NCBI RefSeq assembly: GCF_001677475.2
Contig: NZ_CP015229.1
Length of the DNA: 64,000 bases
Origin: Escherichia coli
GTDB taxonomy: Bacteria > Pseudomonadota > Gammaproteobacteria > Enterobacterales > Enterobacteriaceae
Direction: 5' to 3' (one strand)
The notes under the pieces are model-generated. The model was not told where the DNA came from, made no database searches, and was given only the letters and a program-made list of their open reading frames with translations. Shown here in pieces: positions 3,161 to 25,742 of the stretch. How positions within the stretch are numbered: the first letter of the stretch is position 1; the number at the start of each line of letters is the position of its first letter. Both the position numbers and the translations under genes were made by a program.

Positions 3161-3161
3161 C

Positions 3162-3851: not shown

Positions 3852-3902
3852 TTTGATAATACGATTGGGTAGGGAGTAACCAGTATAAAGAGTTCGAATG
3901 GA

Positions 3903-3930: not shown

Positions 3931-3944
3931 TAGAAAGGACTGTA

Positions 3945-6092: not shown

Positions 6093-6142
6093 CGGTCTCG
6101 CTCCAGTTAATCAAATCACGCATACGCGCTCTCGACTACAGT

Positions 6143-6160
6143 ATGCATCTTTTATGCCAC
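6143..6160 (-). promoter_or_regulatory. Sigma-54 (-24/-12) promoter of fdhF
   Basis: Minus-strand TGGCATAAAAGATGCA fits the GG-N10-GC spacing of the TGGCAC-N5-TTGCA consensus; about 50 bp upstream of the fdhF ATG. Confidence 0.7.
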
Positions 6161-6224
6161 ATTTTATTTGGGGTCATTCCCTGATATTACGGGCACTATT
6201 TATTCAAAACTCTGACGAAAAACA

Positions 6225-6265
6225 GGCTGTCGTCAGTTTTGACGTGACGAAACGAAATACCGCGT
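6225..6265 (-). promoter_or_regulatory. Candidate FhlA upstream activating sequence for fdhF
   Basis: Palindromic cgtcagttttgacgtgacga block about 80-110 bp upstream of the sigma-54 promoter, where the fdhF UAS is known to lie; exact site boundaries not verified. Confidence 0.4.
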
Positions 6266-6289
6266 GACAGCCATCACGCGGCAGACATT

Positions 6290-7756
6290 TTATTTTTTCT
6301 CGACGACGGGACTTGCCTGATACCCGCCGCCCAGCGATTTCATCAACTGAATGCTTTGGATCACCCGGCGGCTGTCCAGCATCAGTAATGACATCTCCTC
6401 GGCAAGCACTGGCAACCGGGCTTCGGTGGCCTGTAAGCGGCTGGTTAAGCCGCGTTGATAGGCGGCCTCGGCAGCGCGCTGGGTGAAGCGCGTTGCTTCC
6501 ACGCGTTCAGCCTGCATCTCTCGCTCGTCGTTGAGCGTTTGCAGACGCGTGCCGTTGACGGCAACGTCGCGCACCGCATTCAGCACTGACTGGTTGTAAC
6601 GTTCAATCATCATGTTGCTGGCGGCGCGAGTGCCTTCGAGATTGGCATTCAACCGTCCACCGTCAAACAGCGGCAATTTCAGACCTGGGATAAAGTTGAA
6701 CTGGCGACTGGTTTTTTTGAATAAGGTATCCAGGTGGATAGAATCCAGGCCGAAAAACGCTTTGATATCAAAGCTCGGATAGAACAGCGCCCGCGCGGAA
6801 TCCACCTGATCTAATGACGCCTGAACATACCAGCGCATAGCTTGCAGATCCGGGCGTCTGGCGAGCAACTCATAAGAGAGTGTCGCCGGAATACCGGTCT
6901 GGACTTGCGGTAATGCCACCGGTTTGATCTCCGGCATATCGCTGGCTCCCGCGCCAATCAATGCACGCAGAGATTCTCGCGTTTCGGTGATTTGCCCTTT
7001 AACGGCAGCAATTTGTTTATCGACCGCCAGAATCTGTGCCCGCGCGCCGTGGAAAGGCACTTGCGCTTCCAGACCGTGCGCCACTTTACTCTGGTGCGCT
7101 TTCACCGCGTAATCAATCACATCGCGTGTTTGTTCTAACAGATCGAGCATCTGATAGCTGGCCTGCATACTGTAATAAAGCTGCGCTACGCCCGTGGTCA
7201 GCGATAGTTCTACTGCTGCGGTTTCTGCCAGCGCTGCATTATGCGCGCCAATGGCGGCGGCAACCGCTGAGCGATGCACACCCCACAAATCAAGATCCAG
7301 TCCGGCAAACAAACCGACTGTGGCTTCCGTATAGTACGGCCCGTCCATCCCCAGTGCGGGCGCATCCATCGCATAAGGGCTTAAAAAGCCGTTCGCCGAG
7401 ACACGTTGGCGGTTGAGCATCCCTAACGCTGCGACCTGTAATTGTGAACCGGCATCTAACAAATCGGCCTGCGACTGCGCTTTTTCTTCCCGCAGTTTCG
7501 CTTCGGCGAGGGTGTGTGAACCACTTAGCGTCCGTTGGATCAGTGCATCCAACTGCGGGTCATTGAGTTGTTTCCACCACTGCGCCTGCGGCCAGCCGGA
7601 GCTGGCAAGATGAATATCATCGGCCAGTTTGATTTGTTCCGGTTTGAGCTGTTGATGAGGCGCAGAATCCTTACGTACCAGGGCACAGCCGGAAATCAGC
7701 GTCGTGCTGCCGAGAATGCTGCACAACAGCAGGCGTGAAAGTTGACGATTGATCAT
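6290..7756 (-). CDS. mdtP: Outer-membrane efflux channel (TolC-like lipoprotein) MdtP
   Basis: 488-aa ORF with lipoprotein signal (LISGC), OMF-family features; overlaps mdtO by 4 bp. Confidence 0.88.
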   Translation of the reverse strand: MINRQLSRLLLCSILGSTTLISGCALVRKDSAPHQQLKPEQIKLADDIHLASSGWPQAQWWKQLNDPQLDALIQRTLSGSHTLAEAKLREEKAQSQADLLDAGSQLQVAALGMLNRQRVSANGFLSPYAMDAPALGMDGPYYTEATVGLFAGLDLDLWGVHRSAVAAAIGAHNAALAETAAVELSLTTGVAQLYYSMQASYQMLDLLEQTRDVIDYAVKAHQSKVAHGLEAQVPFHGARAQILAVDKQIAAVKGQITETRESLRALIGAGASDMPEIKPVALPQVQTGIPATLSYELLARRPDLQAMRWYVQASLDQVDSARALFYPSFDIKAFFGLDSIHLDTLFKKTSRQFNFIPGLKLPLFDGGRLNANLEGTRAASNMMIERYNQSVLNAVRDVAVNGTRLQTLNDEREMQAERVEATRFTQRAAEAAYQRGLTSRLQATEARLPVLAEEMSLLMLDSRRVIQSIQLMKSLGGGYQASPVVEKK

Positions 7757-9804
7757 TGCGTGGCTCCTTGTACCTGTTCCGTGGCGGGCGTTAATACCGG
7801 GGCTGTCCAGTCTGGCAAGCGGGCGAAAAGCTGGCAGACGTGTTGCTCCTGTTTTAATAAGGTCGGCAGGATGGCCTGCGAGGCGGGTGTTTCTTCAAGC
7901 GTTATTTGAGGAGAACGGCTGAGTGCGGTTGCCAGACCGGCGGCGTATTTCTCCAGTGCGTCGGCAAACTGACCTGCTCTGTCCGGCTGGAGCGCGTTAT
8001 CCAGCGCCTGCGCCGAGTTCCAGGTTGCATCCCAGGCGTGAAGAATATCGCGGCCCTGACGAATAACCGTTTGCGAACGTTCAATCAGTAAAGCGCGTTC
8101 TTCGCTGTCCAGTTGACGCTCCAGCGCCACGCGTTGGCACATCTCTTCACAGGCATTAAACGCCGCATGCAGACCTATACGAATTTGCAGATAAGTGCGC
8201 AGAGCCGTGACTTCCTGTTGGCGCGGGATACGCATCAGTTTGCTTAACATACCCAGCGCGCCAGCCAGTTTTTGCGGCAGTGCACGCGCTTCGCTTTCAG
8301 GCCAGACAAAGGTGTAAATCACCGCCGATACTGCCGTACCGATAAGAATGCCGATGGCACGATCGCGTATTTCCACCAGGTCGTAAAACGGACCAAAGAC
8401 GTTTTCGAGCGTGGCGAGAGCAAAGGTCACCACCATCTGCGTGCCGATATAAGAAGAACGCTCAGAGCTGGTGGCGAACCACGCACCTGCCAGGAAAATC
8501 GGTGCCAGTACGAGCAGCAATTCGACAATGTTGTCCAGCCATGGCATGACCAGTAGCGTAAACAGCAACGCCAGAATTGCACCACAAAAAGCTCCGCCAA
8601 AACGTAGCGCCATCTTCTGGTACGAAGAACCGATATTAGGGTTAGCGACGATCACGCAGGTCAGCATACAGGTGTGAATGCCTTCCCAGTCCACGCCGCT
8701 GTAGAAGGTGTAACAGATCAAACAGGCCAGCAGCGTTTTTACTGCGTAACGCATATAGTCCGGATTAGTAAAGGCATCGGCGACCATTGACGGCGGTTTG
8801 GCGGCGGGCGTTGGCGGTGTGTGCGGATCCATCTGACCAAGCTGTAACAGTGTCTGGCAGATATTCTCCAGGTTACATTCCCGTGCCGCCATCGCTTCAT
8901 CTTCACTAAGCCGCCAGTCGCTTTGCCAGCACTGCCCTTTGGCAATAGCATGTTGCAGCTTGGTGATTTCAATGGCTAATTTTTGCCGAAACTCAATGAT
9001 TACCTGCGAATCAGCAAAAGAGGTGGGATCGTAGCGATTCAGCGTCGAGTAAATGTAGGTTACCGTTGCCACGCAGCTTTGCCACCATGCGCTCTGGGCT
9101 CGCCAGTTGGCATCATCCGCGAGGCAAAAGACATTGAGTTTTTGCAGCGCCAGCGTCTCTCTTTCAATCCGCGTTTCGGGTAGCGGTGCGAGGCTGTCCG
9201 TCAGGTGGCTAATGGCATCATCAAGCCGATCATTAATCGCCTGATGCATCTGCGTAATGGCACGACTGGGAAACCACAGCACGCCGATTAACGTCATCAG
9301 CAAGGTTGGATAGAGGCCAACAACGATACACCACAGGGTTAAGCGCACGACCACTTCCGGATAGTCGAGCATGGCGGGGAAGGTTTGCCCGTAAATAGCG
9401 ACAATGGCGACGGCGAAAAAGACCAGCCCCAACCGATGGGTGCGCATCAAAAACATACAGCCCATCAGGATAGGACCTGCGATGATCAATCGGATCAACG
9501 GTTCGCCATATGACCATTTGTAGATCAAAAACAGGCTGGCGATCTCCAGCACCGTGGCGACCACAAACAAGATCGCCACAAATTTGGTGTAAAACGCGTT
9601 CGACTGAATACCGTAAAACAGCACTGCCAGTGATAACGCCACAAAAGGGATCTCAAAAGTCATCGAGATCAGAATCACCAGTAGGCAGCCTACCCAGAGT
9701 TGCACGGTCTGCGGCACACGACCTGGCCGCCGCTCGCTTAACTCTTCATGAAAGAACGCCAGCAGCCTGACCACCGGTAATGGCAGGGAGTTGAGCGCGC
9801 TCAT
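7753..9804 (-). CDS. mdtO: Efflux pump inner-membrane component MdtO (aromatic acid exporter family)
   Basis: 683-aa polytopic membrane ORF; operon context mdtN-mdtO-mdtP. Confidence 0.85.
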   Translation of the reverse strand: MSALNSLPLPVVRLLAFFHEELSERRPGRVPQTVQLWVGCLLVILISMTFEIPFVALSLAVLFYGIQSNAFYTKFVAILFVVATVLEIASLFLIYKWSYGEPLIRLIIAGPILMGCMFLMRTHRLGLVFFAVAIVAIYGQTFPAMLDYPEVVVRLTLWCIVVGLYPTLLMTLIGVLWFPSRAITQMHQAINDRLDDAISHLTDSLAPLPETRIERETLALQKLNVFCLADDANWRAQSAWWQSCVATVTYIYSTLNRYDPTSFADSQVIIEFRQKLAIEITKLQHAIAKGQCWQSDWRLSEDEAMAARECNLENICQTLLQLGQMDPHTPPTPAAKPPSMVADAFTNPDYMRYAVKTLLACLICYTFYSGVDWEGIHTCMLTCVIVANPNIGSSYQKMALRFGGAFCGAILALLFTLLVMPWLDNIVELLLVLAPIFLAGAWFATSSERSSYIGTQMVVTFALATLENVFGPFYDLVEIRDRAIGILIGTAVSAVIYTFVWPESEARALPQKLAGALGMLSKLMRIPRQQEVTALRTYLQIRIGLHAAFNACEEMCQRVALERQLDSEERALLIERSQTVIRQGRDILHAWDATWNSAQALDNALQPDRAGQFADALEKYAAGLATALSRSPQITLEETPASQAILPTLLKQEQHVCQLFARLPDWTAPVLTPATEQVQGATQ

Positions 9805-10835
9805 TATTGCGGCTCAAGATTAGCGACTGCCGACGCGCCAATACGGAACATTTCCGGGTCAGGTTTATCGACCATGATTTTGACCGGAAAACGCTGGGCA
9901 ACGCGGACCCAGTTAATAGAACGAGAAACTTTCGGCAGGCCGCCCAGCACCAGGCCGCCGTCATCCGGTAGCACGCCGTAGCCAATCGAATCCACTTTAC
10001 CTTCGAAGGTTTTGCCGCTGTCGCTCATCAGGCGAATCGTTGCGGGTGTACCTGAGCGAATATTTTTCAGATCGGTTTCGCGGAAGTTGGCGATCACGTA
10101 CCAGTGACGAGTGTCGATTAGGGTAAAAATAGGGCGCATGGCAGAAGCAAATTGCCCGACGGAGGTTTTGAGAGAAATGACCCGGCCATCAAACGGCGCG
10201 CGAACGGTCGCCATTTCCAGATGCAGTTTGGTCAGGGCAATATCCGCTTCGACCGCCGCACGTTGCGCCACCAGCGCATCGACGCCGCTGACGGCGCTGG
10301 CGGCTGACTGCGCCTGTAACAATACGGCATTAAGATCCGCTTCTGCGGCGCGCTGCGCCGTTCTTGCACGGTCAACGTCTTCCGCTGAGACAAAACCTTC
10401 TTTCAATAATGGCTCGGTGCGGCGTAATGTATCTGTGGCCTGTTTCGCGGCGGCACGGGCTTTTTCTACCGTGGCATTAACCGAGTCGGCACCAAACTGT
10501 TGCGCGTCAACGCTACGCTGGGTGAGCATAATTTGCTTATCCAGCGCCGCGAGGGAGGCTTCGGCTTTCGCCAGATTGGCTTCGTACGGGCGCGGGTCGA
10601 TGCGGAACAGTAAATCGCCCTGTTTCACTGCCTGGTTGTCGGTGACCGCCAGTTCTACAATGCGACCGCTGACTTCCGGCACCACATCAATGGTATCTGC
10701 TGACGCGTAAGCGTCATTAGTTGATGGCGCACTGTCTACGCGCCAGATAACGAAAACAAGGGCAACCAGCGCCAACGCAACCACTAACAGAGCAGGGAAT
10801 TTACTGCGAGGAGCTTTTTTCGGCGTACTTTCCAT
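9804..10835 (-). CDS. mdtN: Membrane fusion protein (HlyD family) MdtN
   Basis: 343-aa ORF, single N-terminal TM segment followed by coiled-coil and beta-barrel MFP regions. Confidence 0.88.
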   Translation of the reverse strand: MESTPKKAPRSKFPALLVVALALVALVFVIWRVDSAPSTNDAYASADTIDVVPEVSGRIVELAVTDNQAVKQGDLLFRIDPRPYEANLAKAEASLAALDKQIMLTQRSVDAQQFGADSVNATVEKARAAAKQATDTLRRTEPLLKEGFVSAEDVDRARTAQRAAEADLNAVLLQAQSAASAVSGVDALVAQRAAVEADIALTKLHLEMATVRAPFDGRVISLKTSVGQFASAMRPIFTLIDTRHWYVIANFRETDLKNIRSGTPATIRLMSDSGKTFEGKVDSIGYGVLPDDGGLVLGGLPKVSRSINWVRVAQRFPVKIMVDKPDPEMFRIGASAVANLEPQ

Positions 10836-10853
10836 GAGCGCGTCTCAAATAGA

Positions 10854-11129
10854 TTAGAAAAATGCCAGCCAGAGCAGCATGGCGTAGAGAGCAAAAAGGG
10901 CGGTATAAATAATTCCGACAAATGCCAGATTGATATTTGCCCGCTGAATAATTCGCCTCGCGATGAGCGTCAAAATAAGGCTGGCAATAGCGCAGAAAAA
11001 CCAGCTGGGATAATAAGCGCCGATCACCGGGATTGCCGGAGATAATGAGCATCCCGAAACCATGAAGACGGGAATTATCCAGGCTGTTTTTTTGAGTTGC
11101 ATCGCCATGCGAGAGAGAACTGTTGGCAT
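10854..11129 (-). CDS. ytcA: Small lipoprotein/membrane protein YtcA (91 aa)
   Basis: ATG at 11129-11127 gives MPTVLSRMAMQLKKTAWIIPVFMVSGCSLSP... with lipobox; first gene of the ytcA-mdtNOP cluster. Confidence 0.75.
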   Translation of the reverse strand: MPTVLSRMAMQLKKTAWIIPVFMVSGCSLSPAIPVIGAYYPSWFFCAIASLILTLIARRIIQRANINLAFVGIIYTALFALYAMLLWLAFF

Positions 11130-11300
11130 ATTAAATACATCCTGTCTGCTGCGAACAATATCTGTAGTGAATATCAATATCCATTGAAGGCGTCAGTATG
11201 GCTATTTTCTTGATGAATAAAAATAGCTTTATTCAGCCACCGCATTCATAACTTATATATTTTATGTATTAATTGCCTGTATGTATTTTTATAATAAATA

Positions 11301-11328
11301 CTTTTGGGGGCTTAAGCGCCCCCAAAAG
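11301..11328 (-). terminator. Rho-independent terminator downstream of yjcS
   Basis: cttttgggggc-ttaa-gcgcccccaaaag hairpin followed on the minus strand by a T/A-rich tract. Confidence 0.65.
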
Positions 11329-11337
11329 TGAGTGGCA

Positions 11338-13323
11338 TTAATTTGGGGTTACGATATTCACCCACAAATCGAAATTATCCAGACAGGCAATAATTTCTTC
11401 CAGTTTCGCGCCATTGCCAATAATTTTGGCTTTCTTCGCTTTTACCAGATCCGCCATTTTGGCTTGTCCGGTCAGCACGGCGTGCAGATCTTCACGGCTA
11501 ATGTAGAAGGACGCATTGGCTTGCGGTTGCAGCGTTTTACGGTAGTTAAGCACGCTATCGTTCAGGGTCAGGTTGAGGTTATCGCCGTTACTCATATTGA
11601 AGTTCAGGCTGATGTTCTTCCCGGCGGCTTTTTCGCTATCGAGGCGAACAGCCATAAAGTCGAACAGCATTTCGACCGACATCCCGCGAATGGTATCCGG
11701 GGAACCGGTGGTGCCGTGGCTGAACTTATGTACCCCTTCGCGCAGCTCTTTCGCGCCAGTCAGGTAGAAACCGCGCCAGGTGGCTGACTCCGCCTGATAA
11801 CCAAGCTGTTCAAAGTTATTGGCTTGCAGATTCTTCGCCACCTGGTCGCCCGGATTGGCGGCAATCACCTGTTTCAGTAACTCTGCCGACCAGCGATAAT
11901 CTCCCTGCTTGTTTGCTTCTTGCGCCAGGCTGATGACGCGTGCGGAACCGCCCAACGCCTGTACATAACGTTTACCCATCTCCACCTGACCATACGGATG
12001 CAGGTTTGCCGGGTTACCGTCGTAATAGCCGAGGTAGAAGTTATATACCGCACGGGCGTTGTGGCTGACAGAACCGTAATAGCCACGGCTGGCCCAGTTA
12101 TTGGCAAGCGCAGGCGGCAGCTTAATCATGTCGCCGATTTCATTCATGGTGTAGCCCTGGTTTGCCAGGTGCAGGGTCTGGTCGTGAATGTACTTGATAG
12201 TATCGCGATATTTACCAATATAATCATTGATATGCTTATTGCCCCATACCGGCCAGGTGTGCGGCATAAACAGGACTTCCGCTTCGTTACCCCACATATC
12301 CAGCGTTTCGTTCAGGTACTCGGTCCACTTGTTGGTATCGCGGGTTTTCGCGCCGCGCAGAGTGTAGAAGTTGTGCAGGGTATGCGTGGCGTTCTCGGCG
12401 GTACACAGGGCTTTCAGGGCCGGAATATAGAAGTGCATTTCCGCTGGCGCTTCGCTGCCTGGGGTCATCAGGAAGTCAAACTCCAGGCCGTCGATAATCA
12501 TCTTCTCGCCAGTTCTGACGATCGTTTTGGTTGGCGCAATAATGCTTGGGTCACCGGTTGCCAGCGTCACGCCAAGGCCATTACCCACGTTACCCTGCGC
12601 GTTGTGCGGCAGTAACAGGCCGTAAGAGTAGAGCGCACGGCGGCTCATAATGTTACCCGCCAGTACGTTTTCACTGATGGCTTCGTCCATAAATCCAGCA
12701 GGGGCAATCACCTGCACTTTGCCCGATTTAACATCGGCTTCAGAGATAATACCTTTCACGCCACCATAGTGGTCAGTGTGGCTGTGGGTGTAGATAACCG
12801 CAACAATCGGTTTTTGCGGACGATGCTGGAAGTAAAGGTCAAGGGCGGCTTTTGCGGCAGGCGGCGTTACCAGCGGGTCGATAACAATAATGCCTTTCTC
12901 GCCTTCCACGAACGTAATGTTGGAGATGTCCTGACCACGCACCTGATACATTTTATCGGTGACTTTGAACAGGCCAGAAATACCGTTGATCTGTGACTGA
13001 CGCCACAGGCTGGGGTTTACGGTTTCCGGCGCAGCGGCATTAATATCAAATTTGTAATCGTCTGCGCGGTAGTAAACTTTACCGTTCGCATCACGCAGAA
13101 TACCTTCGTTCAGCAGCGGAGCGATAAATCCACGCTGGGCATCGTCAAAATCCTGACGATCGCTAAACGGTAATGATTTGGCGTAATTCTGATTAACCTG
13201 TTGCGTATATTGGGAGGCGGCTTTCGCTTCCTCTTTCGCGTAAGCGGTATTTACCATCATGCCGCTGGCGGCGGTTAACGCAATAACAATCCTGCTCAAA
13301 CGGAATAACCGAGAGTTATTCAT
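11338..13323 (-). CDS. yjcS: Alkyl/aryl-sulfatase YjcS (metallo-beta-lactamase fold with SCP2-like C-terminal domain)
   Basis: 661-aa reading from the ATG at 13323 (GGAG Shine-Dalgarno 8 nt upstream); signal peptide; HSHTDHYGG metallo-beta-lactamase motif. Confidence 0.88.
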
Positions 13324-13575
13324 ATAAATCTCCATTTATCATTTGTGTCGTAAATATGTAATCCATGCAAAATACGTCATTTAAAGCTGGCGATATCATA
13401 ATTGGGAAATTGCGACTTTAATAAGTAGAAGTGTGAGCTGAACGCGCCATTTTATTAGGCATTTGTGCTGAAGAGGGAAAAGTACGCAAATTTATTATCT
13501 CTGTAAATAATATGAGGTGTTTTATATATTTATTATATATATTGTACTTCGGCAAATACTGAGCACAATTAATCA

Positions 13576-13893
13576 ATGCAACCGGTGTTTTTTATTAAAA
13601 AACGTACCGGAGCAATGGGCGGTCATGTCGCTGGCACCGCAGGATTCTGTGTTGCTGTGCCAGCCTTTTATTCATGGTCAATGAGTGAGGGGATTGATAA
13701 AGAAACCAGGTCGTCAGAGCGCACTGATTATCCGCATTACGCCAGTGAAGTTGCACTGGCTTTTGGTTCACGAGTGGTTGGCCTCGAACTGGCAAAAATG
13801 ATTGTGGATGCGTGGCTGGGCGCGCAGTACGAAGGCGGTCGTCATCAACAACGCGTGGAGGCGATTACGGCAATAGAGCAGCGGAGAAATTGA
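13576..13893 (+). pseudogene. rpiB: Decayed remnant of ribose-5-phosphate isomerase B / allose-6-phosphate isomerase (rpiB)
   Basis: C-terminal ...SSERTDYPHYASEVALA-FGSRVVGLELAKMIVDAWLGAQYEGGRHQQRVEAITAIEQRRN matches RpiB, but the central catalytic segment (ICGTGVG region, about 50 residues) is missing and the N-terminus is unrelated. Confidence 0.6.
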
Positions 13894-13961
13894 GATTCAT
13901 CCACTACTTGCATGGATGAGTAATGACTAATGTGGATAGAGTTTCTTTTTGAGGTTGGCTA

Positions 13962-14291
13962 ATGAAACGCTTTCCGCTATTTCTTTTATTCACCCTGCTC
14001 ACGCTGTCCACCGTTCCGGCCCAGGCCGATATTATCGACGACACCATTGGCAATATTCAGCAGGCGATTAACGACGCTTATAACCCTGACCGTGGGCGAG
14101 ACTATGAAGATTCGCACGACGACGGCTGGCAGCGTGAAGTGAGCGACGATCGGCGCAGACAATATGACGACCGCCGCCGCCAGTTTGAAGATCGCCGCAG
14201 GCAGCTGGACGATCGCCAGCGCCAGCTTGATCAGGAGCGTCGGCAACTGGAGGATGAAGAGCGGAGAATGGAAGATGAGTATGGGCGATGA
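13962..14291 (+). CDS. yjdP: Secreted low-complexity protein YjdP
   Basis: 109-aa ORF, signal peptide MKRFPLFLLFTLLTLSTVPAQA, then repeated DDRRRQ-type charged repeats. Confidence 0.8.
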   Translation: MKRFPLFLLFTLLTLSTVPAQADIIDDTIGNIQQAINDAYNPDRGRDYEDSHDDGWQREVSDDRRRQYDDRRRQFEDRRRQLDDRQRQLDQERRQLEDEERRMEDEYGR

Positions 14292-14332
14292 GGTAGGCTC
14301 GGGTGAGGGGGCCAGCGAGCACATTCTCCCCA

Positions 14333-15091
14333 TCACGCCACCCCAATCTCCATCCCATCAAACCCCGCCTCAAACCCCGACGGCAGTGCGTTTTCCATCA
14401 GCCACGCATCAAACTGGTGGCTGATATGGGTCAGAATCACCCGTGGCGAGCGGATAACCTGATTCAGCGCAAGCACGGTATTTAAATCACAGTGATTACG
14501 CGGTGCATCCTCGCGCGGCGGGTGGCTGCAATCAATCACCATTACCTGCGGCTGATTATTGCGTAAAAATTTCAGCGTTTTTTCCGGCAAGCCAGCGGTG
14601 TCAGACAGCCACGCCACCCGGCTGTGTGCCGTTTCCAGCAGATAACCGAAGGTCAGTTTTGAGTGGTTGAGCGGCAGCGGCGTGACCTGTAATCCCTGCA
14701 AATCAAACATCACAAATGGCTCCACCGTGTGGCTGAAATCAAGCAGGCCCGGATGTTTAAACAGATCGTCGCAGCCCTGTTCATCCGGCGGGCCGTAGAT
14801 CGGGATCGAATCGCCCACGCCCCAGCGCAGCGGAAACAGCCCCTGCACGTGATCCATATGGTAGTGCGTCAGCAAAAACTGCTGGAACGATCCGGGCGAC
14901 CAGCGATCGGCGAGATCGTGCAGCCCGGCGTCGATCAGGGTGATCGCGTCGTTAAACTTCACGACGCCGCTGCATGGCTGGCGGCGATACTGCGGTGAGC
15001 GCCGCGCTCTGGCGCAGGCCGCGCACTCACAGCCCCATGCGGGAACGCCCTGTGCGCCGCCAGTGCCAGTAAGTGTGAGGGTCAGGCTCAT
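14333..15091 (-). CDS. phnP: Phosphoribosyl 1,2-cyclic phosphate phosphodiesterase PhnP (metallo-beta-lactamase fold)
   Basis: 252-aa ORF with HYHMDH motif; last gene of the phn operon. Confidence 0.9.
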
Positions 15092-15092
15092 G

Positions 15093-15527
15093 TTACAGCG
15101 CCTTGGTGAAGCGGAAGTGGCTCTGCTCGTAGCCTTCGCGCAGATAGAAACGGTGCGCGTCGTGGCGCTTGACGTTGGTGGAAAGCTCGGTCATTTCGGC
15201 CCCGGCCTGGCGGGCTTCTTCTTCTGCCCATGCCAGTAATTTACTGCCGACATTCAGACCGCGCGCCTGCGGCATCACCACCAGTTCCTGAATTTCGCCG
15301 ATCCAGTTGACATGATGCAGATGAAACTGCAAATGCAGGCCGATCATGCCGACAACTTCGCCATCCAGCAGCGCCAGATGGTAGCGCATGTTCGGGTCGC
15401 GCAGGTTGGCGTTAAAGCCCACGCGAAACGCGTGGTGGTCAAACTCCGCCTGTTTTAGCTCACAAATCAGCGCGTAAACTGCGTCGGTATCGTACTGCGT
15501 GGCCGGGCGAAGCTCACAAGCAGGCAT
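15093..15527 (-). CDS. phnO: Aminoalkylphosphonate N-acetyltransferase PhnO (GNAT)
   Basis: 144-aa GNAT-family ORF in phn operon order. Confidence 0.88.
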
Positions 15528-16071
15528 GGTGTTTCTCCTTCTGATGAATCAGCGTCAGCAGCGTGTCGACCGACTGGCGCAGGCTGCCGTCATTATTGAG
15601 CGTATGGCAATCCTGAGGAGTATAGCGGGCGGCGCGCGCCAGCCGGGCGTTAATTTCACTGGCGTTTTCACGGCCACGGTTTTCCAGGCGCTGGCGCAGG
15701 ATCTCCGGCGAAACCTGTAAGCAAATGGGCAGCAGCGCCGATTGATAGCGCGCCCGCGCCTGCGGCAAATGTGCGCGTGAGCCGTTGACCACCACGTCAA
15801 ATCCAGCGTGCAGCCAGAGGTCAATCTCGACGCCGATGCCATAATACAGGCCGTTGGCGTGCCAGCTTAAGGCCAGAAGGTTCTGCCCCGCGCGGGTAAA
15901 AAACTCCTGCTCGCTCAGGGCGATATGGTTTTCACTTCCGGCGCTGGCGGCGCGCGTGATGTAGCGATGCGCTACCAGTAGCTGAGTTTGTTCCCGCTGG
16001 CGAAGTTCCGTCAACAGACTGTCTTTTCCGGAGCCAGAGGCCCCCATTAACCAAATCAGTTTTCCCGTCAT
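15514..16071 (-). CDS. phnN: Ribose 1,5-bisphosphate phosphokinase PhnN
   Basis: 185-aa ORF with P-loop GASGSGKDS; overlaps phnO by 14 bp. Confidence 0.9.
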
Positions 16072-17207
16072 CAGAACACCCTTTTCCCCTGACGCCAGAC
16101 GTGGTCGATGTGAATGTGATTGCCCTTGCGATGCGCCAGCACCAGGTCGGCGCGTTTACCCTCGCCAATCACCCCGCGATCCTGAAGATTCAGCGCCTGG
16201 GCCGGGTTTTTGGTCACCAGCTTCACCGCCTGCGGCAGCGTAAAGCGGTTGCTCTGGTCATCGGCGACGCGGAACGCCGCATCCAGCAGGCTGGCGGGGT
16301 AGTAGTCGGAAGAGAGGATATCCAGCAGGCCAAGCTGTGCCAGCTCACTTGCCGCCACGTTACCGGAGTGCGAACCGCCGCGCACGATATTCGGCGCGCC
16401 CATCAGCACGTTCATACCATGCTTGCGTGAGGCTTCTGCGGCTTCGAACGTGGTAGGAAATTCGGCGATCACGCTACCAAGCTGGTGGGATTCGGCAACG
16501 TGGGCGTGCGTGGCGTCATCGTGGCTGGCGAGCGCAATGTGTCGCGCGCGGCACATTGCGGCGATGGTTTCGCGATTTGGCTGCGACCAGCGTGCGGCGA
16601 GCGCCAATTGCTCTTCTTCGTACTGCTGCATCTGCGCATCGGTGAGGGAATATTTGCCCTGATAATATTCGCGATACTTCTCGCGATTGGCGAACTGGCG
16701 CTGGCCTGGCGAGTGGTCCATCAGCGATACCAGCGTCACCGGTTCGCGCTGCACCAGTTTTTCAAACAGCGGCAGCGTGGTGTGATGCGGCAGTTCGCAG
16801 CGCAGGTGCAGGCGGTGCTCGGCGCGGTTGACGCCGCGTTTCTGCGTCTCTTCGATGGCGTTGATCATCTTCTCCAGATTCTCCAGCCGATCGCCGCCGT
16901 CGCGCACATCACCAATCGCCACGGCGTCCAGTACGGTGGTGATGCCGCTTGCCACCATCAGCGCGTCGTGGCTGCTCATCGCCGAATGGGCGGGCCAGTC
17001 GACTTTCGGGCGCGGGGTGAAGAATTTATCGAGGTTGTCGGTATGCAGCTCAATCAGGCCGGGTAGTAGCCAGCCACCTTCGCCGTCCATCGCTTCCGGC
17101 TGGCGGCTCTGGCTTTCGGCAAAGGCGCGAATTTCGCCATCCTGTACTTCCAGTGAACCGTGCACCACTTCGTTTTCCAGCACCAGTTTGACGTTATTGA
17201 TAATCAT
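16071..17207 (-). CDS. phnM: C-P lyase pathway triphosphate diphosphohydrolase PhnM (amidohydrolase fold)
   Basis: 378-aa ORF; operon position and metal-dependent hydrolase motifs. Confidence 0.9.
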
Positions 17208-17884
17208 GAAGAGGCTCCCATCGGGTGCAGGCGGTCGGCGACGTCATTGCGTACGGCTTCGTCATGGAAGATACCGACGATGGCTGCGCCACGGGCTTTA
17301 GCTTCGAGAATCAGTTCCACCACCGCGGCGCTGTTTTTGGCGTCCAGCGAGGCGGTAGGTTCGTCGAGCAGCAGAATGGGGTAGTCGACGATAAAGCCAC
17401 GGGCGATGTTGACGCGCTGCTGTTCGCCGCCGGAGAAGGTCGATGGTGCAAGGTGCCACAGGCGTTCAGGCACGTTCAGGCGCGTCAGTAATCGGGCGGC
17501 TTTAGCGGCGCAGGCTTCACGCGGTACGCCGGTATCGAGCAGAGGCTGCATCACCACTTCCAGTGCCGAAATACGCGGGATGACGCGCAGAAACTGGCTC
17601 ACCCAGCCGATGGTGGTTTTGCGGATCTCCACCACTTTGCGCGCTGGCGCGGTGACCAGGTCTACCCATTCCTCACCGTGTTTGATCTGGATTTGCCCTT
17701 CGTCGGGCAGATAGTTGGCGTACAGCGAGCGCAGCAGGGTTGATTTTCCGCTGCCGGAGTGGCCGTGAAGCACCACGCATTCGCCTGCGTTGACGGTGAG
17801 CGAGGCACGTTGTAAGACGTGCAGGCGCACGCCGTTTTGCTGGTGCAGGATGAAGGTTTTACTGACGTTTTGTACGTTAATCAT
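17204..17884 (-). CDS. phnL: C-P lyase system ATP-binding protein PhnL
   Basis: ATG at 17884-17882 gives [11 protein letters not shown]...; Walker [10 protein letters not shown]; ORF-track start at 17998 is an extension through the upstream REP. Confidence 0.9.
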
Positions 17885-17905
17885 TTTTCGCCTCGTGGTT
17901 CGGGT

Positions 17906-17990
17906 GTCGGATGTGACGCTGACGCGTCTTATCCGACCTACGGGGAGCGCATTTGTCGGCCGGATAAGGCGTTTACGCCGTATCCGGTAC
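17906..17990. repeat. BIME: two inverted REP units between phnK and phnL
   Basis: gtcggatgtgacgctgacgcgtcttatccgacctac and gtcggccggataaggcgtttacgccgtatccggtac, an inverted REP pair inside the operon. Confidence 0.8.
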
Positions 17991-17994
17991 TGGC

Positions 17995-18753
17995 TCAATT
18001 CTGCAAAACCGATGACACCAGCAACTGGGTGTACGGGTGGTGCGGGTCGTCGAGCACGCGGTCGGTTAACCCACTCTCCACCACTTGCCCCTGTTTCATC
18101 ACCAGCAAACGGTCCGCCAGCAGGCGGGCGACGCCCAGATCGTGGGTGACAATCACCACCGCCAGATTCAGCTCCACCACCAGACCGCGCAGCAGATCGA
18201 GCAGGCGCGCCTGTACCGATACATCCAGCCCGCCGGTCGGTTCATCCATAAACACCAGCTTCGGATGCGTCACCAGGTTACGGGCAATCTGCAAACGTTG
18301 CTGCATGCCGCCGGAAAAGGTGGTCGGCAGGTCGTCGATCCGGTTGGCGGGAATCTCCACCTCTTCCAGCCACTTCTGCGCGGTGGCGCGGATGTCGCCG
18401 TAATGACGCGCCCCGGTTGCCATCAAGCGTTCGCCGATGTTGCCGCCCGCCGATACCTGACGGCGCAGGCCGTCGAGCGGATGCTGATGCACCACGCCCC
18501 ATTCGGTGCGCAGCAGGCGACGGCGGTCGGCCTCGCTCATGCCATAGAGGGAACGGTTTTCATAGTGAATCTCCCCCTGCTGCGGCGTCAGGCGCGCGGA
18601 GATTGATTTCAGCAGCGTGGTCTTCCCGGAGCCGGATTCCCCGACAATGCCTAGCACTTCCCCCGGCCATAAATCAAAAGAGACATCGCTAAAGCCTTTG
18701 CCCGGCGCGTAAAGGTGGGTCAGGTTATTGATCGAAAGTAACGGTTGATTCAT
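17995..18753 (-). CDS. phnK: C-P lyase system ATP-binding protein PhnK
   Basis: ATG at 18753 gives [15 protein letters not shown]...; Walker [10 protein letters not shown]. Confidence 0.9.
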
Positions 18754-19595
18754 TGGTTTTTTGCCTCGCTCTGTTGGCGGCAATAATCGGTATCGGAGCA
18801 GACAAACATGCGGTTTCCGGCGTCATCCAGCACCACTTCATCAAGATAGCTGTGGGTCGATCCGCAGATGGCGCACGGCTCATCCCACTGCTGGACGGTG
18901 AACGGGTGATCGTCGAAATCGAGGCTTTCCACGCGGGTAAACGGCGGCACCGCATAGATGCGCTTCTCACGCCCTGCGCCGAACAGTTGCAGGGCGGGCA
19001 TCATGTCCATTTTCGGGTTATCGAATTTCGGGATCGGCGACGGGTCCATCACGTAGCGCCCGTTCACCTTCACCGGATAGGCGTAGGTGGTGGCGATATG
19101 ACCGAAGCGGGCGATATCTTCATACAGCTTCACCTGCATCACGCCATACTCCTCCAGCGCGTGCATGGTGCGGGTCTCCGTTTCTCGCGGCTCGATAAAG
19201 CGCAGCGGTTCCGGGATCGGCACCTGGAAGATAACTATCTGATCTTCGGTCAGCGGCGTTTCGGGGATACGGTGGCGCGTCTGGATAAGCGTCGCATCAT
19301 CCGTGCGTTCGGTGGTGTTCACCCCGGTCACGCGCTTAAAGAAGTTGCGAATCGACACGGCGTTGGTGGTGTCATCCGCGCCCTGGTCAATCACCTTCAA
19401 CACGTCGCTTTCGCCAATCACGCTGGCGGTGAGCTGTATGCCGCCGGTTCCCCAGCCGTACGGCATCGGCATCTCGCGCCCGCCAAACGGCACCTGATAA
19501 CCGGGGATCGCTACCGCTTTTAAGATGGCGCGGCGGATCATGCGTTTGGTCTGCTCGTCGAGGTACGCAAAGTTGTAGCCGCTCAGATTAGCCAT
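18750..19595 (-). CDS. phnJ: C-P lyase catalytic subunit PhnJ (alpha-D-ribose 1-methylphosphonate 5-phosphate C-P lyase)
   Basis: ATG at 19595 gives MANLSGYNFAYLDEQTKRMIRRAILKAVAIPGYQVPFGG...; C-terminal CxxCxxxxxC cluster. Confidence 0.92.
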   Translation of the reverse strand: MANLSGYNFAYLDEQTKRMIRRAILKAVAIPGYQVPFGGREMPMPYGWGTGGIQLTASVIGESDVLKVIDQGADDTTNAVSIRNFFKRVTGVNTTERTDDATLIQTRHRIPETPLTEDQIVIFQVPIPEPLRFIEPRETETRTMHALEEYGVMQVKLYEDIARFGHIATTYAYPVKVNGRYVMDPSPIPKFDNPKMDMMPALQLFGAGREKRIYAVPPFTRVESLDFDDHPFTVQQWDEPCAICGSTHSYLDEVVLDDAGNRMFVCSDTDYCRQQSEAKNQ

Positions 19596-20652
19596 GGTTC
19601 TGCTCCTGTTGCAGACGTTTGAGTAGCTCCAGTTCAGCCTGGAAATCGACGTAGTGCGGGAGTTTGAGGTGCGAGACAAAGCCTGCAGCTTCGACGTTGT
19701 CGGCATGCGCCAGCACGAACTCTTCATCCTGCGCCGGGCCTGTCGCGTGCTCGCCGTACTCCGGGGCTTGTAGAGCGCGGTCAACCAGCGCCATCGCCAT
19801 CGCTTTGCGCTCGCTCATGCCGAACACCAGCCCGTAGCCGCGCGTGAAGTGCGGCGGCTCATCCGGCGGGTCGATAAAACCGTTGACCATTTCACATTCG
19901 GTCATCAGCAGTTCGCCGACGTTCACCGCAAATCCCAGCTCTTCCGGCACAATCGACACGTCGATATAGCCGCTGCGGATTTCGCCTGCGAACGGATGAT
20001 TGCGTCCGTAACCACGCTGGGTGGAGTAGGCTAGCGCCAGCAAATAGCCTTCGTCGCCGCGCATTAATTGTTGCAGGCGGGAGGAGCGTGAGCAGGGGTA
20101 AACCGGCGGCGTGCGGGTGATGTCGTCCGGCTGTGCGCCGCTATCTTCTTCAAACTTCGCCAGCCCCTGACGCGCCAGCAGGCTGAAAACGTGCGGCGAC
20201 GGCTGTTGTTCGCTGTCGGCTGTGGTCAGCGTCGGCGCTTCGCCGTTTGCCAGCAGGGTGAAATCGAGCAGGCGATGGGTGTAGTCGTAGGTTGGGCCAA
20301 GCAGCTGGCCGCCGGGAATATCTTTATAAACCGCTGAAATACGCCGTTCGAGACGCATCTCCGTGGTGTCGAGCGGCTCGCTTACCGCGAGCTTCGCCAG
20401 CGTGGTGCGGTAGGCGCGTAGCAGGAAAATCGCTTCAACGTTATCGCCGCTGGCCTGTTTCAGCGCCAGCGCAGCCAGTTCGCGGTCGGCAATGCCGCCT
20501 TCGGTCATCACGCGATCTACCGCGAGGTTAAGCTGCTGTTCAATCTGGGCGACGCTCAGTTCAGGCAAATCGGTATCGCCCCGGCGTCGGCTCTCTTGCA
20601 GGGCGTGGGCGGCGTCGATCGCCTTCTCGCCCCCTTTCACGGCAACGTACAT
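19588..20652 (-). CDS. phnI: C-P lyase core component PhnI
   Basis: ATG at 20652 gives [16 protein letters not shown]... (354 aa); overlaps the phnH stop by 1 nt. Confidence 0.9.
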   Translation of the reverse strand: MYVAVKGGEKAIDAAHALQESRRRGDTDLPELSVAQIEQQLNLAVDRVMTEGGIADRELAALALKQASGDNVEAIFLLRAYRTTLAKLAVSEPLDTTEMRLERRISAVYKDIPGGQLLGPTYDYTHRLLDFTLLANGEAPTLTTADSEQQPSPHVFSLLARQGLAKFEEDSGAQPDDITRTPPVYPCSRSSRLQQLMRGDEGYLLALAYSTQRGYGRNHPFAGEIRSGYIDVSIVPEELGFAVNVGELLMTECEMVNGFIDPPDEPPHFTRGYGLVFGMSERKAMAMALVDRALQAPEYGEHATGPAQDEEFVLAHADNVEAAGFVSHLKLPHYVDFQAELELLKRLQQEQNHG

Positions 20653-21236
20653 CAGCACACCTCCACATGAGTGGTTCGCGGGATAGCCAGCAGGCGCTCG
20701 CCGCAGGTCAGGATCAGGTCGATGCCGAGCGGGAACGGGTGCGGGCGCTCGGTGAGTTCGTGCAGAATGCACTCTGGCAGCTGCGGAGCGATCATTCGTT
20801 CTTCGGCAATACCCGCGCCAGTAAGGCGCAGCATGCGCCCGCCGCTCAGGCTGACGACCTGTAAAATCAGCGTCGCGCCCGCTTCCGGCGCAACAGCGGT
20901 GCCGCTGGAAAGAGCGTTGAGCTGTTCGCTGGAAATCGCCTCATCCGTTACCGCGAAGGTCGCCAGTTCCGGTTGATTGACCAGAGGCGCGTTGGTATGA
21001 AAACGCAGGCTCTGGCTGACGATATCGTTACTTAATGGCGCGGAAAGCCACACCGGCGTGTCGTTATCGGCCAGCGTCAGCAGCACGCTGGTGGTGGCGA
21101 TATTCAGCGGCTGCCAGCCGCGTTTGAGCTGATGCAGGGCGACAATCACGCCCGGCTCGCTCATGGCCTTTAACAGGCGACGAAAACTGTGCTGGGCATC
21201 CTGCACGGGAAGCATAAAAGCGGTTTCCAGGGTCAT
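20652..21236 (-). CDS. phnH: C-P lyase core component PhnH
   Basis: 194-aa ORF in operon order, coupled to phnG and phnI. Confidence 0.9.
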
Positions 21237-21685
21237 GCGTTGTCTCCGCGAACCATCGTAAAGAAGTCGACCCGGCTGGCGTTCACTTCGGCCTGGCGTG
21301 CGGCAATGCGTGCCATACGGTCAGCATCCAGCGGGGCAATAAGGGTTTCTGATAAGTTTTGAAAGTGGCGAGATTGCTGCATCAGCGCGTCAATCAGCGC
21401 GCAGCGTTCGGCATGCTGTTTATCACGCCCCAGCACCCAGCTGTAGCCGAGCGTGCCGTCAGTCAGGCGCACGGCGGCGCGGGTCAGCGTGGCGTCGCCG
21501 GCAAAAAAGCGTTCGCCGGTGCCGCCCATCCGCGCCTGAATCTGCACCAGGCCAGTTTCGGCGGCGCGGATTACTTCATAGTCGGCGGTGATGTTCAGCG
21601 CGTTCAGGCGGGCTGCCAGTTCAGCCGGTTGGCTGTGCGCCAGTACGGACATCCAGTGCTGGCGGGTCGCGGTATCTGCGTGCAT
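21233..21685 (-). CDS. phnG: C-P lyase core component PhnG
   Basis: 150-aa ORF in operon order. Confidence 0.9.
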
Positions 21686-22411
21686 TCAGTGCTCCATAGT
21701 GAATTCAATCATGTCGGCGCGCGTCAGGCTGACGGAGTACTCCGCCGGGCTGCTTTCACCGTCACGGTGGTTAAGGGTGCGCACGCACAGCAGCGGCGAC
21801 ATATTCGGGATTTCAAGACGCTGGCACTCTTTGGCCTGGGCGCGGCGGGCGCTGATCCGCGTCTGGCTGCGGCGCAGCGCAATCCCCGTTTGCTCGCGCA
21901 GAAAATCGTGCAGCGAGCCGCTGTCGAAGCGTTGCAGCGTCGGCCAGAGAGTAAGGTCCGCGAAGTAGTGGTCGATTAAACAGAGCGCGACGCCGTTGAC
22001 CCGACGCAGGGTGCGCAGGTGGATGACGTTCTCGCCCTCGGTTATCCCCAGCGCGTCAGCGACGTGACCGGAGGCGGGGCGCAGCACCGACAGCAGTTTT
22101 TCGCTGGTGGGATGGCTGCCCTGGTCCAGCAGGTTCTGGCTAAAACGCGCCTGGGCGTTGAGCGGGTAATCGAACGGGCGCATCAGCACCAGCACGCCGA
22201 CGCCCTGACGGCGTTGTACCCAGCCTTTTTCCACCAGTTGGTCGATGGCGCGGCGCAGGGTGTGGCGATTCACCTCAAAGCGCGCCGCCAGTTGCTGCTC
22301 GGCGGGAAGATAGTCGCCGCAGCGATAGTGTTGACGAAGCTCCTGCTCAAGTTTTGCGGCTATCTCCTGATAGCGTGTTGGGTAGCTGGTCGGATGTGTA
22401 GACAAGTGCAT
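21686..22411 (-). CDS. phnF: GntR-family transcriptional repressor PhnF
   Basis: 241 aa from the ATG at 22411; N-terminal winged-helix HTH and UTRA-like C-terminal domain. Confidence 0.88.
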   Translation of the reverse strand: MHLSTHPTSYPTRYQEIAAKLEQELRQHYRCGDYLPAEQQLAARFEVNRHTLRRAIDQLVEKGWVQRRQGVGVLVLMRPFDYPLNAQARFSQNLLDQGSHPTSEKLLSVLRPASGHVADALGITEGENVIHLRTLRRVNGVALCLIDHYFADLTLWPTLQRFDSGSLHDFLREQTGIALRRSQTRISARRAQAKECQRLEIPNMSPLLCVRTLNHRDGESSPAEYSVSLTRADMIEFTMEH

Positions 22412-22431
22412 AGCTATCAATGCCTCGCTTA

Positions 22432-23211
22432 TCAGATAAAGTGCTTACGCAACCGTTGAGAGAGGAAATCCAGCAGGCTGACCGTGACGATAATCAGCAC
22501 CATCAGGGCGCAGGTTTGCTGGAACTGGAAACCGCGAATCGCTTCCCACAGCGTGACGCCAATTCCGCCTGCGCCGACCATGCCTACGACGGTCGCCGAA
22601 CGGACGTTGGATTCGAAGCGATAGAGAGAATAGGAAATCAGCAGCGGCATCACTTGCGGCAGCACGCCGTAGAGGATCTCTTCGAGCTTGTTGGCACCAG
22701 TGGCGCGAATACCTTCCACCGGGCCGGGTTCAATTGCTTCTACCGCTTCGGAAAGCAGCTTGGAGAGCACGCCGGTGGTGTGGATAAACAGCGCCAGCAC
22801 GCCAGCGAACGGGCCAAGGCCGACGGCGACCACGAACAGCATGGCGAAGACCATTTCGTTAATGGCGCGGCAGGCGTCCATCAGGCGGCGTACGGGCTGG
22901 TAAACCCACCACGGCACCAGGTTTTCGGCGCTCATCAGGCCAAAGGGGATGGAGAGAACCACCGCCAGCGCGGTGCCCCAGACGGCGATTTGCAGCGTGA
23001 CGGCCATTTCGGTGAGGTAATCCTGCCACTGGCTGAAATCGGGCGGGAAGAAGTCGGCGGCGAACGTCGCCATGTTGCCGCCGTCTTTAATCAGCGTGAG
23101 CGGGGCCATTTCCGCGCCCTGCCACGAGACGACCAGCACGGCGAGAACAATGGCCCAGCTCAGAAGCGAGAACCAGCTGCGCTTGGGTGGGGCGATGGTG
23201 ATGGTTTGCAT
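22432..23211 (-). CDS. phnE: Phosphonate ABC transporter permease PhnE; uninterrupted 259-aa frame
   Basis: Single continuous [22 protein letters not shown]... with no frameshift. Confidence 0.9.
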
Positions 23212-23235
23212 ATATTGCTCCGTTTAATGTTTTCT

Positions 23236-23321
23236 CCCTCTCCCTGTGGGAGAGGGCCGGGGTGAGGGCATCAGCGTGCGCATTTCCCCCTCACCCTAAC
23301 CCTCTCCCTCAAGGGAGAGGG
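23236..23321. repeat. GC-rich intergenic repeat: three tandem/nested palindromes (BoxC-like)
   Basis: ccctctccc-tgt-gggagaggg (23236-23256), gggtgaggg...ccctcaccc (23260-23296) and ccctctccc-tcaa-gggagaggg (23300-23321), between phnD and phnE. Confidence 0.6.
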
Positions 23322-23336
23322 GACCGATCGAGCACA

Positions 23337-24353
23337 TTACTGCACCGCTTTACTCACCGAACTCATCGCGCTTAACGCGTTGTTCAGGCGGTCCAGGTCA
23401 TCCAGTTGCGCCTGAATCTCGGTGGTTTTCGCCAGTTTGTCCTGCTCATTCAGCCCTTTATTGCCTTTCACACCCTGCATCTCTTTAAACAGCGCGAGCT
23501 GGCGAATCGGCACCAGTTGCAGGTCGCTGGAGGCGCGGAACGGGGCCCAGCCCAGGCGCTCCAGCACCGCTTTCTCTTCCGGCGTTTTGCCGTAGTTCAT
23601 AAAGAAGTCGTAGATCTTGTCTTTGGTGGTTTCGGAAAGATTTTTGCGCCAGACGATCGGATCGCCTGGGATCAGCGGCGATTTCCAGATCACCTTCAGT
23701 TCTTTGAGCTTCTCCGGTGCGGAGGTTTTCAGCTTGTCGAGGTTTTCGGTGTTGTTGGTCGCCACATCCACTTGTTTGTTGGCGACGGCCAGCGCGTTGG
23801 TTTCATGCCCGGCGTTGACGGTGCGCTTGAAGTCGCTGGCGGAAATATTGTTTTTGGCGAAGACGTAGTAGCCGGGGACGAGGAAGCCAGAGGTGGAGTT
23901 AGGATCGCCATTGCCAAAGGTGAGATCTTTACGCTTCGCCAGCAGATCGTTCAGGTTGTTGATCGGACTGTCTTTGTTGACGATCAACACGCTCCAGTAA
24001 CCCGGCGATCCATCCGCCGCGACCGTCTGGGCGAAGACCTGACCGTTGGCGCGATCCACCGCTTCCATCGCCGACAGATTGCCGTACCAGGCGATATCCA
24101 CTTTGTTGAAGCGCATTCCCTGGATAATGCCCGCGTAGTCCGGGGCAAAGAAGGCGTTGACCTTTACGCCCAGCTTCTTCTCCATATCCTGTAAGAACGG
24201 CGTCCATTGCGGTTTCAGGTTTTGCTGTGATTCCGTTGAAATAATGCCGAAATTCAGCGCCTTTTCCTGCTCTTCGGCGTGCGCCGGGCTTAACAGGGTG
24301 CTGAGGCTGAACATGCTGGTGAAGGCCAGCGAGGCAATTATCTTAGCGTTCAT
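23337..24353 (-). CDS. phnD: Phosphonate ABC transporter periplasmic binding protein PhnD
   Basis: 338-aa ORF with signal peptide ending AHA. Confidence 0.92.
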   Translation of the reverse strand: MNAKIIASLAFTSMFSLSTLLSPAHAEEQEKALNFGIISTESQQNLKPQWTPFLQDMEKKLGVKVNAFFAPDYAGIIQGMRFNKVDIAWYGNLSAMEAVDRANGQVFAQTVAADGSPGYWSVLIVNKDSPINNLNDLLAKRKDLTFGNGDPNSTSGFLVPGYYVFAKNNISASDFKRTVNAGHETNALAVANKQVDVATNNTENLDKLKTSAPEKLKELKVIWKSPLIPGDPIVWRKNLSETTKDKIYDFFMNYGKTPEEKAVLERLGWAPFRASSDLQLVPIRQLALFKEMQGVKGNKGLNEQDKLAKTTEIQAQLDDLDRLNNALSAMSSVSKAVQ

Positions 24354-24377
24354 TCGTTTTCCTCAATGATGGGGATG

Positions 24378-25166
24378 TCAGGCAGCTTTCGCGTTTTCTT
24401 CGACGCGGTTGATGCTGCGGTAGAGATGGTCAAAACGTTCGTTATCAAACTGTTGGCTGCTGCCGTCGTAGAAGACGTGCCCCTGGCGCAGGGCGACGAT
24501 GCGTTCGCAGTAGCGCAGGGCGTAATCCACCTGATGCAGCGTGACGACCACGGTAATGCCGTCGTTCTGGTTAATGTCGCGCAGGGTGTCCATCACGATG
24601 CGCGCCGATTCCGGGTCCAGCGAGGCGATGGGTTCATCGGCCAGAATTACCTTCGCCTGCTGCATCAGCGCGCGGGCAATCGCCACACGCTGCTGTTGCC
24701 CGCCGGAGAGGGTGGAAACGCGCTGATGGGCAAAATGCACCATGCCAACGCGGGTCAGCGCCTGTAACGCGCGCTGTTTCTGCTCGCGGGTGAACCAGCT
24801 AAAACAGGTGCGCCAGAATGGCGTGCTGCCGAGCGCGCCAATCAGCACGTTCTCCAGTACGCTCAGGCGATTCACCAGGTTGAATTGTTGGAAGATGTAG
24901 CCGGTGTTGGCGCGGCTTTTGCGGATATCGCGGGCCAGGCGGCCTTCGCGCTGGACTGTGCGGCCCAGCAGCTCGATATGGCTACCGGCAGATTTATCGC
25001 CGGTAATCAAACCGCTTAAGTGACGTAAAAGGGTGGATTTGCCGGAACCCGACGGCCCAAGCAGAGCCACCATTTCACCGTGATGAATGTTCAGATCAAC
25101 CGCGTGCAGCGCCTGATGCTGATTGAAGGTTTTGGCGAGCTTCTCGACACGGATAATCGTTTGCAT
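24378..25166 (-). CDS. phnC: Phosphonate ABC transporter ATP-binding protein PhnC
   Basis: 262-aa ORF, Walker [13 protein letters not shown] signature LSGGQQQR; good GGGAGG ribosome-binding site. Confidence 0.93.
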
Positions 25167-25210
25167 GATGCAGCCTCCCTAAAAAAGTGGCTCCATCGTG
25201 GCGGATTATT

Positions 25211-25245
25211 GTGACGATTTTGTTAACTAAAAGTGACTAACGGAT
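25211..25245 (-). promoter_or_regulatory. Pho box (PhoB-binding site) of the phnC promoter
   Basis: Minus-strand ccgTTAGTCACttttAGTTAACaaaaTCGTCAC: repeated TGTCAT-like 7-mers at about 11-bp phase, 45-80 bp upstream of the phnC ATG. Confidence 0.6.
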
Positions 25246-25298
25246 GAAGAGTTAACGAGATTTCGATGACAGTGCGGGAGGGCGGCCCTCCCGGCGGG

Positions 25299-25742
25299 TT
25301 AGTGCGTTGGTTGTTGTTTGACGACATTAATCATCCACGGTACGCCAAATTTATCGGTGACTTTGCCGAAGCCATGCGCCCAGAAAGTTTCCTGCCAGGC
25401 CATTTCGATTTTTCCGTTAGCGGCAAGGTTGTCAAACCAGCGTTTTCCTTCTTCGACCTGTTGCGAATCGAGCACCAGCGTAAAGCCGGAGTAGCTGGCT
25501 TTTCCTGACGGTATAGCATCGCTCATCATGATATCGCTTCCGGCAATGCGCACATTGGCGTGGGCGATGGCGGTATCGGGAAATTGCATTCCGGAAGGGC
25601 AGTTCTCGGCGCTGTCCTGCGCTGATTTTGGCATTTCGCCGAAGCTGATTTTATAGAGCAGTTCAGCGCCCAACGTACGTTGATAATAAGCAATTGCGTC
25701 GGCACAGTTACCGGCAAAAGAGAGGTAGGGACTTAACGGCAT
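25299..25742 (-). CDS. yjdN: Glyoxalase/bleomycin-resistance-fold protein YjdN (PhnB)
   Basis: 147-aa ORF MPLSPYLSFAGNCADAIAYYQ... Confidence 0.85.
   Translation of the reverse strand: MPLSPYLSFAGNCADAIAYYQRTLGAELLYKISFGEMPKSAQDSAENCPSGMQFPDTAIAHANVRIAGSDIMMSDAIPSGKASYSGFTLVLDSQQVEEGKRWFDNLAANGKIEMAWQETFWAHGFGKVTDKFGVPWMINVVKQQPTH

Follow-up and report, generated by a model that had tools for sequence, protein, structure and literature searches.

The strain analysed here carries an ordinary and predictably functional phnE gene inside a complete 14-gene phnCDEFGHIJKLMNOP operon, in an Escherichia coli background other than K-12. We predict that the strain is Phn+ without any need for reversion, and we assign this reading a probability of about 0.9. 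The window, which is the whole stretch of DNA that was analysed, comprises 64,000 nucleotides of contig NZ_CP015229.1 (assembly GCF_001677475.2). The phnE gene lies on its minus strand at positions 22432 to 23211 and encodes the membrane permease of PhnCDE, an ABC importer of phosphonate and phosphate. An intact phnE with two copies of an 8-bp repeat is the already known and well-documented majority state of the gene; the literature likewise describes a functional phnE in most E. coli.

The 14 genes from phnC to phnP occupy positions 14333 to 25166 on the minus strand. All of them are full length, start with ATG, have no internal stop codons and follow the K-12 order, and their products align ungapped with their K-12 counterparts at 95.7-100% amino acid identity. 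The first gene, phnC (24378 to 25166, minus strand, ATG to TGA), encodes the ATP-binding subunit of 262 residues, which is 98.9% identical to K-12 PhnC over its full length. It is followed by phnD (23337 to 24353, minus strand, uninterrupted from ATG to TAA), encoding the periplasmic phosphonate-binding protein of 338 residues (99.7% identity to K-12, full length), and, after phnE, by phnF (21686 to 22411, minus strand, ATG to TGA), whose product, a GntR-type regulator of 241 residues, is 100% identical to that of K-12. The ten genes phnGHIJKLMNOP (14333 to 21685, minus strand) encode the C-P lyase pathway and are intact, their products being 95.7-100% identical to those of K-12, again without gaps. 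Several products differ from those of K-12, among them PhnN (95.7% identity), PhnH (96.4%) and PhnL (97.3%). As none of the 14 phn genes is interrupted or truncated, phosphonate use without prior reversion can reasonably be expected.

At the DNA level, the operon is 95.4% identical to K-12, and only 91-93% identical in phnL and phnM. The region from 14300 to 25200 is mosaic and unusually polymorphic, with the closest reference changing between successive 500-bp chunks; the best complete E. coli match reaches 97.5-97.8% over the operon and 99.0% over window positions 36000 to 60000. An exact 43-mer taken from the window phnE had no hit among the species-representative genomes of GTDB. High DNA divergence combined with few amino acid changes indicates that the operon has remained under purifying selection. 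For phnE itself, ten public loci encode an identical protein (259 aa) from DNA that has diverged from the window by 2.2-4.6%, and the conservation of the protein despite this divergence points to strong purifying selection on the gene.

A strain with an intact phnE could still be unable to use phosphonates if its promoter were weakened or if a deleterious missense change were present elsewhere in the operon. The differences from K-12 in PhnN, PhnH and PhnL would allow for the latter. As regards the former, the 134 nucleotides upstream of phnC (25167 to 25300, minus strand) carry six SNPs relative to K-12 (95.5% identity). The Pho-regulated promoter of K-12 is located in the equivalent of this region, and some of the six SNPs may fall in the PhoB-binding region. 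However, the final 56 nucleotides before the phnC start, including the ribosome-binding region, are identical to K-12, and the upstream haplotype occurs at at least 99% identity in 332 complete E. coli records, which marks it as a natural variant. The full-length state of all 14 genes and the purifying selection suggested by the operon-wide pattern also argue against a loss of function, which we consider quite improbable. We thus favour a functional operon: the 14 intact genes and the phnC upstream region provide the genetic prerequisites for phosphonate uptake and for degradation by C-P lyase. Expression of the operon and growth on phosphonates are what we infer from them, as a prediction of phenotype.

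The spacer between phnD and phnE (23212 to 23336, minus strand) consists of a 125-nucleotide, near-perfect palindromic dispersed repeat, whose predicted RNA fold has an energy of -72.8 kcal/mol (z-score -7.3). In appearance this palindrome is a putative element of the boxC type. The spacer differs in length across strains (60, 64, 105 and 125 nucleotides). That of K-12 is 105 nucleotides long and has a different sequence, which we take to be of the REP type; the repeat element of the window is thus unlike that of K-12 at this site, and a copy related to it lies between yjdP and phnP in K-12. An Rfam scan of positions 22300 to 25400 returned no family at threshold. The only hits were sub-threshold eukaryotic miRNA models, far below their gathering scores, which we read as noise from the long hairpin. 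The hairpin might influence how stable the mRNA is, or how strongly phnD is expressed in relation to phnE.

The initial annotation had described phnE as a continuous frame of 259 codons, and both the ORF listing and the translation confirmed this: the 780-bp gene runs from ATG to a terminal TGA with zero internal stops. With TIGR01097, an equivalog model of NCBIfam ('phosphonate ABC transporter, permease protein PhnE'), the product scored 311.3 bits, well over the membership cutoff of 216.7, and covered profile positions 8-251 of 252. Residues 88-258 matched the Pfam domain BPD_transp_1 (PF00528) with 91.8 bits (cutoff 26.4), and an EAA-loop sequence, a mark of ABC importer membrane domains, starts at residue 155, 3' of the repeat tract. 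The gene stands where phnE is expected, after the ATPase gene phnC and the binding-protein gene phnD and before phnF and phnG-P. Of the 5426 complete E. coli genomes, about 5400 have the matching region annotated as phnE, and alignment with 780-bp phnE genes from other strains of the species was colinear with zero gaps. A hidden frameshift or a misread frame was rejected, given this gap-free alignment and the end-to-end match to the model. The frame could in principle be open by chance, with the true gene being the 281-codon ORF that the opposite strand does carry (22420 to 23265, plus strand), but the 281-residue product of that ORF has no Pfam match, the minus-strand ORF reaches 311 bits against the PhnE model and, of its 26 substitutions relative to K-12, 24 lie at third positions of its codons, so this explanation is vanishingly improbable and the antisense ORF was rejected as a real gene. 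The family matches, the gap-free colinearity, the third-position differences and an antisense ORF that lacks a family match together confirm, at the level of sequence, that positions 22432 to 23211 are a genuine phnE and not a chance frame.

The identical 259-residue PhnE is present on at least 1000 public contigs, and the public-collection entry for this exact protein comprises 32,613 index blocks. The 90%-identity protein cluster that contains the window PhnE also lists several members of 241 residues named 'PhnF'. As PhnF and PhnE are unrelated proteins, these names probably reflect an error of naming or clustering in the collection and have no biological meaning.

We compared the window phnE with that of K-12 MG1655, which RefSeq lists as a 788-bp pseudogene with the label 'frameshifted'. 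The sole indel between the two is one 8-bp GCTGGCGT unit at phnE nucleotides 406-413. In the window, the unit forms a tandem repeat of two copies (GCTGGCGT GCTGGCGc) at positions 22791 to 22806 on the minus strand, corresponding to phnE nucleotides 406-421 and residues 136-141 (AGVLAL). The window and strain AF40 thus carry two copies (GCTGGCGT GCTGGCGC), while K-12 carries three (GCTGGCGT GCTGGCGT GCTGGCGC); the cryptic allele, with three copies in 788 bp, is found at both K-12 loci examined (L001 and L003) and not in the window. The 8-bp frameshift that the initial annotation described for K-12 is therefore real and consists of this extra unit, and the pairwise alignment that it had proposed located the repeat and found no hidden frameshift. 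The lesion in K-12 thus enlarged a tandem repeat that already had two copies; it did not duplicate a unique sequence.

Read without repair, K-12 phnE loses its native frame after residue 141 and reaches a stop at codon 190. When one unit is removed, the K-12 protein differs from that of the window at a single residue, I21V. The two genes are 95.7% identical, with 26 of 780 bases differing, 24 of them at third codon positions and one residue changed. The window protein is thus the repaired K-12 PhnE save for I21V, encoded by DNA that differs at 26 mostly synonymous positions. The cryptic K-12 allele, phn(EcoK0), shares with the window its locus, its operon order, the repeat unit and the position of that unit; it differs in having three copies in 788 bp and a frame lost after residue 141, whereas the frame of the window, with two copies, stays open.

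The 8-bp element is known from the literature, as is its loss from Phn+ revertants (PMC3463581, PMC6469041, PMC7566553); PMC6469041 places GCTGGCGT at 407-414, and PMC7566553 states that K-12 carries 'three, not two, copies'. The window resembles the allele of E. coli B, phn(EcoB), and that of the K-12 revertant, phn(EcoK+), in that GCTGGCGT is present in two copies, the 780-bp frame is open and the phnC-P operon is complete; for E. coli B the likeness is drawn from the published description. Both alleles go back to Makino et al. 1991 and Iqbal et al. 2004, as cited in PMC3463581 and PMC6469041. E. coli B is reported to be proficient in growth on phosphonates (PMC3463581), and transport of both phosphonate and Pi was reported for the K-12 revertant PhnE, which is one residue off the window protein (PMC6469041).

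The AGVLAL tract lies within the most hydrophobic segment of PhnE, just upstream of the EAA loop. The EAA loop of type I ABC importers makes up the coupling helix, through which the ATPase is docked. A search by sequence for a structure of PhnE found none, and residues 125-254 align with residues 80-210 of the MetI permease (PDB 3dhw, 6cvl), a distant match with E of about 6e-6. MetI and other permeases of type I ABC importers (3dhw, 6cvl, 4yms) share with PhnE the BPD_transp_1 fold region and the EAA coupling loop; PhnE differs from MetI in serving a different substrate system and in having additional N-terminal membrane segments.

Two repeat copies keep the phnE frame open, and full-length PhnE would be expected. 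With a third copy added by strand slippage, as in K-12, translation goes out of frame beyond residue 141 and would yield a product with neither the cytoplasmic EAA loop (residues ~155-186) nor the C-terminal membrane helix. A frameshift of the K-12 type would consequently strip PhnE of the part that contacts PhnC. Because it would remove the EAA loop and the C-terminal membrane helix, the frameshift would account for the cryptic state of the transporter and of phosphonate use in K-12. The cell from which the window derives is predicted to import phosphonates (and, per the literature, orthophosphate too) when the operon is expressed. The imported phosphonates would then be cleaved via C-P lyase, without prior reversion.

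The initial annotation had also proposed that the strain is not a standard K-12 derivative, and this holds: phnE is 95.7% and the operon 95.4% identical to K-12, and the als operon is absent. The two-copy state would also be expected if the window came from a K-12 lineage in which the loss of one 8-bp unit had restored Phn+, as the 780-bp frame of such a revertant would be open and hold two copies (PMC6469041, PMC4759930). However, the 26 differences among 780 phnE positions, the 95.4% identity of the operon, the different repeat element in the phnD-phnE spacer, the missing als operon with a truncated rpiB and the ceiling of ~97.8% on operon identity among complete E. coli genomes leave this origin with a negligible probability. 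The divergence in sequence and the lack of the als operon already rule out a K-12 Phn+ revertant, and we retain a non-K-12 E. coli as the source of the window. Beyond ruling out an unreverted K-12, an intact phnE carries no information on lineage, because it is the majority state.

Within 11338 to 14332, the D-allose (als) operon, located between yjcS and rpiB in K-12, is absent and rpiB is truncated. The alkyl sulfatase gene yjcS (11338 to 13335) adjoins the rpiB remnant and yjdP (13686 to 14297). Window positions 1 to 14400 are covered to at least 80% in one place by 4129 of 5426 complete E. coli genomes (about three quarters), which suggests, as far as coverage counts can tell, that the als-less arrangement is common in E. 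coli.

The frequency of the three-copy allele was counted in complete E. coli genomes using a 68-nucleotide query carrying the three-copy tract, with at least 80% coverage. The query matched 3121 records. The 2121 records matching at 80-90% identity aligned across an 8-bp gap, leaving approximately 1000 with three copies. Independently, the 788-bp K-12 gene was matched at at least 99% identity in 999 records. The three-copy allele is thus present in approximately 1000 of 5426 complete E. coli genomes (~18%). In a length survey of 60 evenly spaced records, phnE measured 780 bp in 46, 788 bp in 11, 796 bp in one and 775 bp in one, and one record gave a truncated match. All 11 sampled 788-bp alleles were at least 99.7% identical to K-12 phnE. 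The 775-bp phnE of strain BS-01 was set aside as a biological allele, since phnD, phnE and phnF are all labelled 'frameshifted' in that record and assembly errors are suspected.

Carriers of three copies include pig, dog and human isolates. A pig isolate from Quebec, for example, has a 788-bp phnE with three units that is annotated 'frameshifted', and the wastewater isolate SW07163 from the Galapagos has a 796-bp phnE with four units and the same annotation, the one four-copy genome seen. Since about 1000 complete genomes, animal and human isolates included, carry the three-copy allele, it is not a laboratory oddity. Judging from these genomes, the cryptic three-copy allele is a trait of a natural clade and not specific to laboratory K-12. 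The two-copy state is that of the majority of complete genomes and is probably ancestral.

This distribution bears on a further hypothesis, that of a natural contingency switch in which the two-copy tract of the window would stand for ON and the three-copy tract for OFF. The tract at 22791 to 22806 has features of a slipped-strand contingency repeat, as it is a perfect tandem repeat inside a gene with a unit that is not a multiple of three. Its copy number varies, with alleles of two, three and four copies in complete E. coli genomes, and the three- and four-copy alleles are annotated as frameshifted. According to PMC4759930, slippage between the direct repeats deletes the 8 bp at high frequency, and reversible ON/OFF switching in K-12 is reported by Iqbal et al. 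2004, as cited in PMC3463581. In some E. coli lineages (loci L004, L008 and L010), a synonymous GTG to GTA change interrupts the repeat (GCTGGCGT ACTGGCGC, phnE nucleotides 406-421). With the repeat interrupted, slippage should become rarer and phnE should stay locked ON; the repeat of the window is uninterrupted. We hold the switch hypothesis tentatively, at somewhat less than even odds. If it is correct, the window strain could likewise switch OFF, and the loss of PhnCDE uptake would be maintained in a large natural clade and not be a laboratory accident.

For the strain itself, the predicted Phn+ phenotype would mean that methylphosphonate, aminoalkylphosphonates and similar compounds can serve as phosphorus source, and that the cell has an extra route of Pi uptake. 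This may be relevant to work on phosphate starvation, glyphosate/AMPA or fosfomycin, in which, according to PMC4759930 and PMC7566553, the cryptic phnE of K-12 is a known confounder. Beyond a correct annotation, the intact phnE of the window matters little. For the species, the K-12 frameshift turns up in about a fifth of complete E. coli genomes, which corrects the idea of a laboratory-only lesion.
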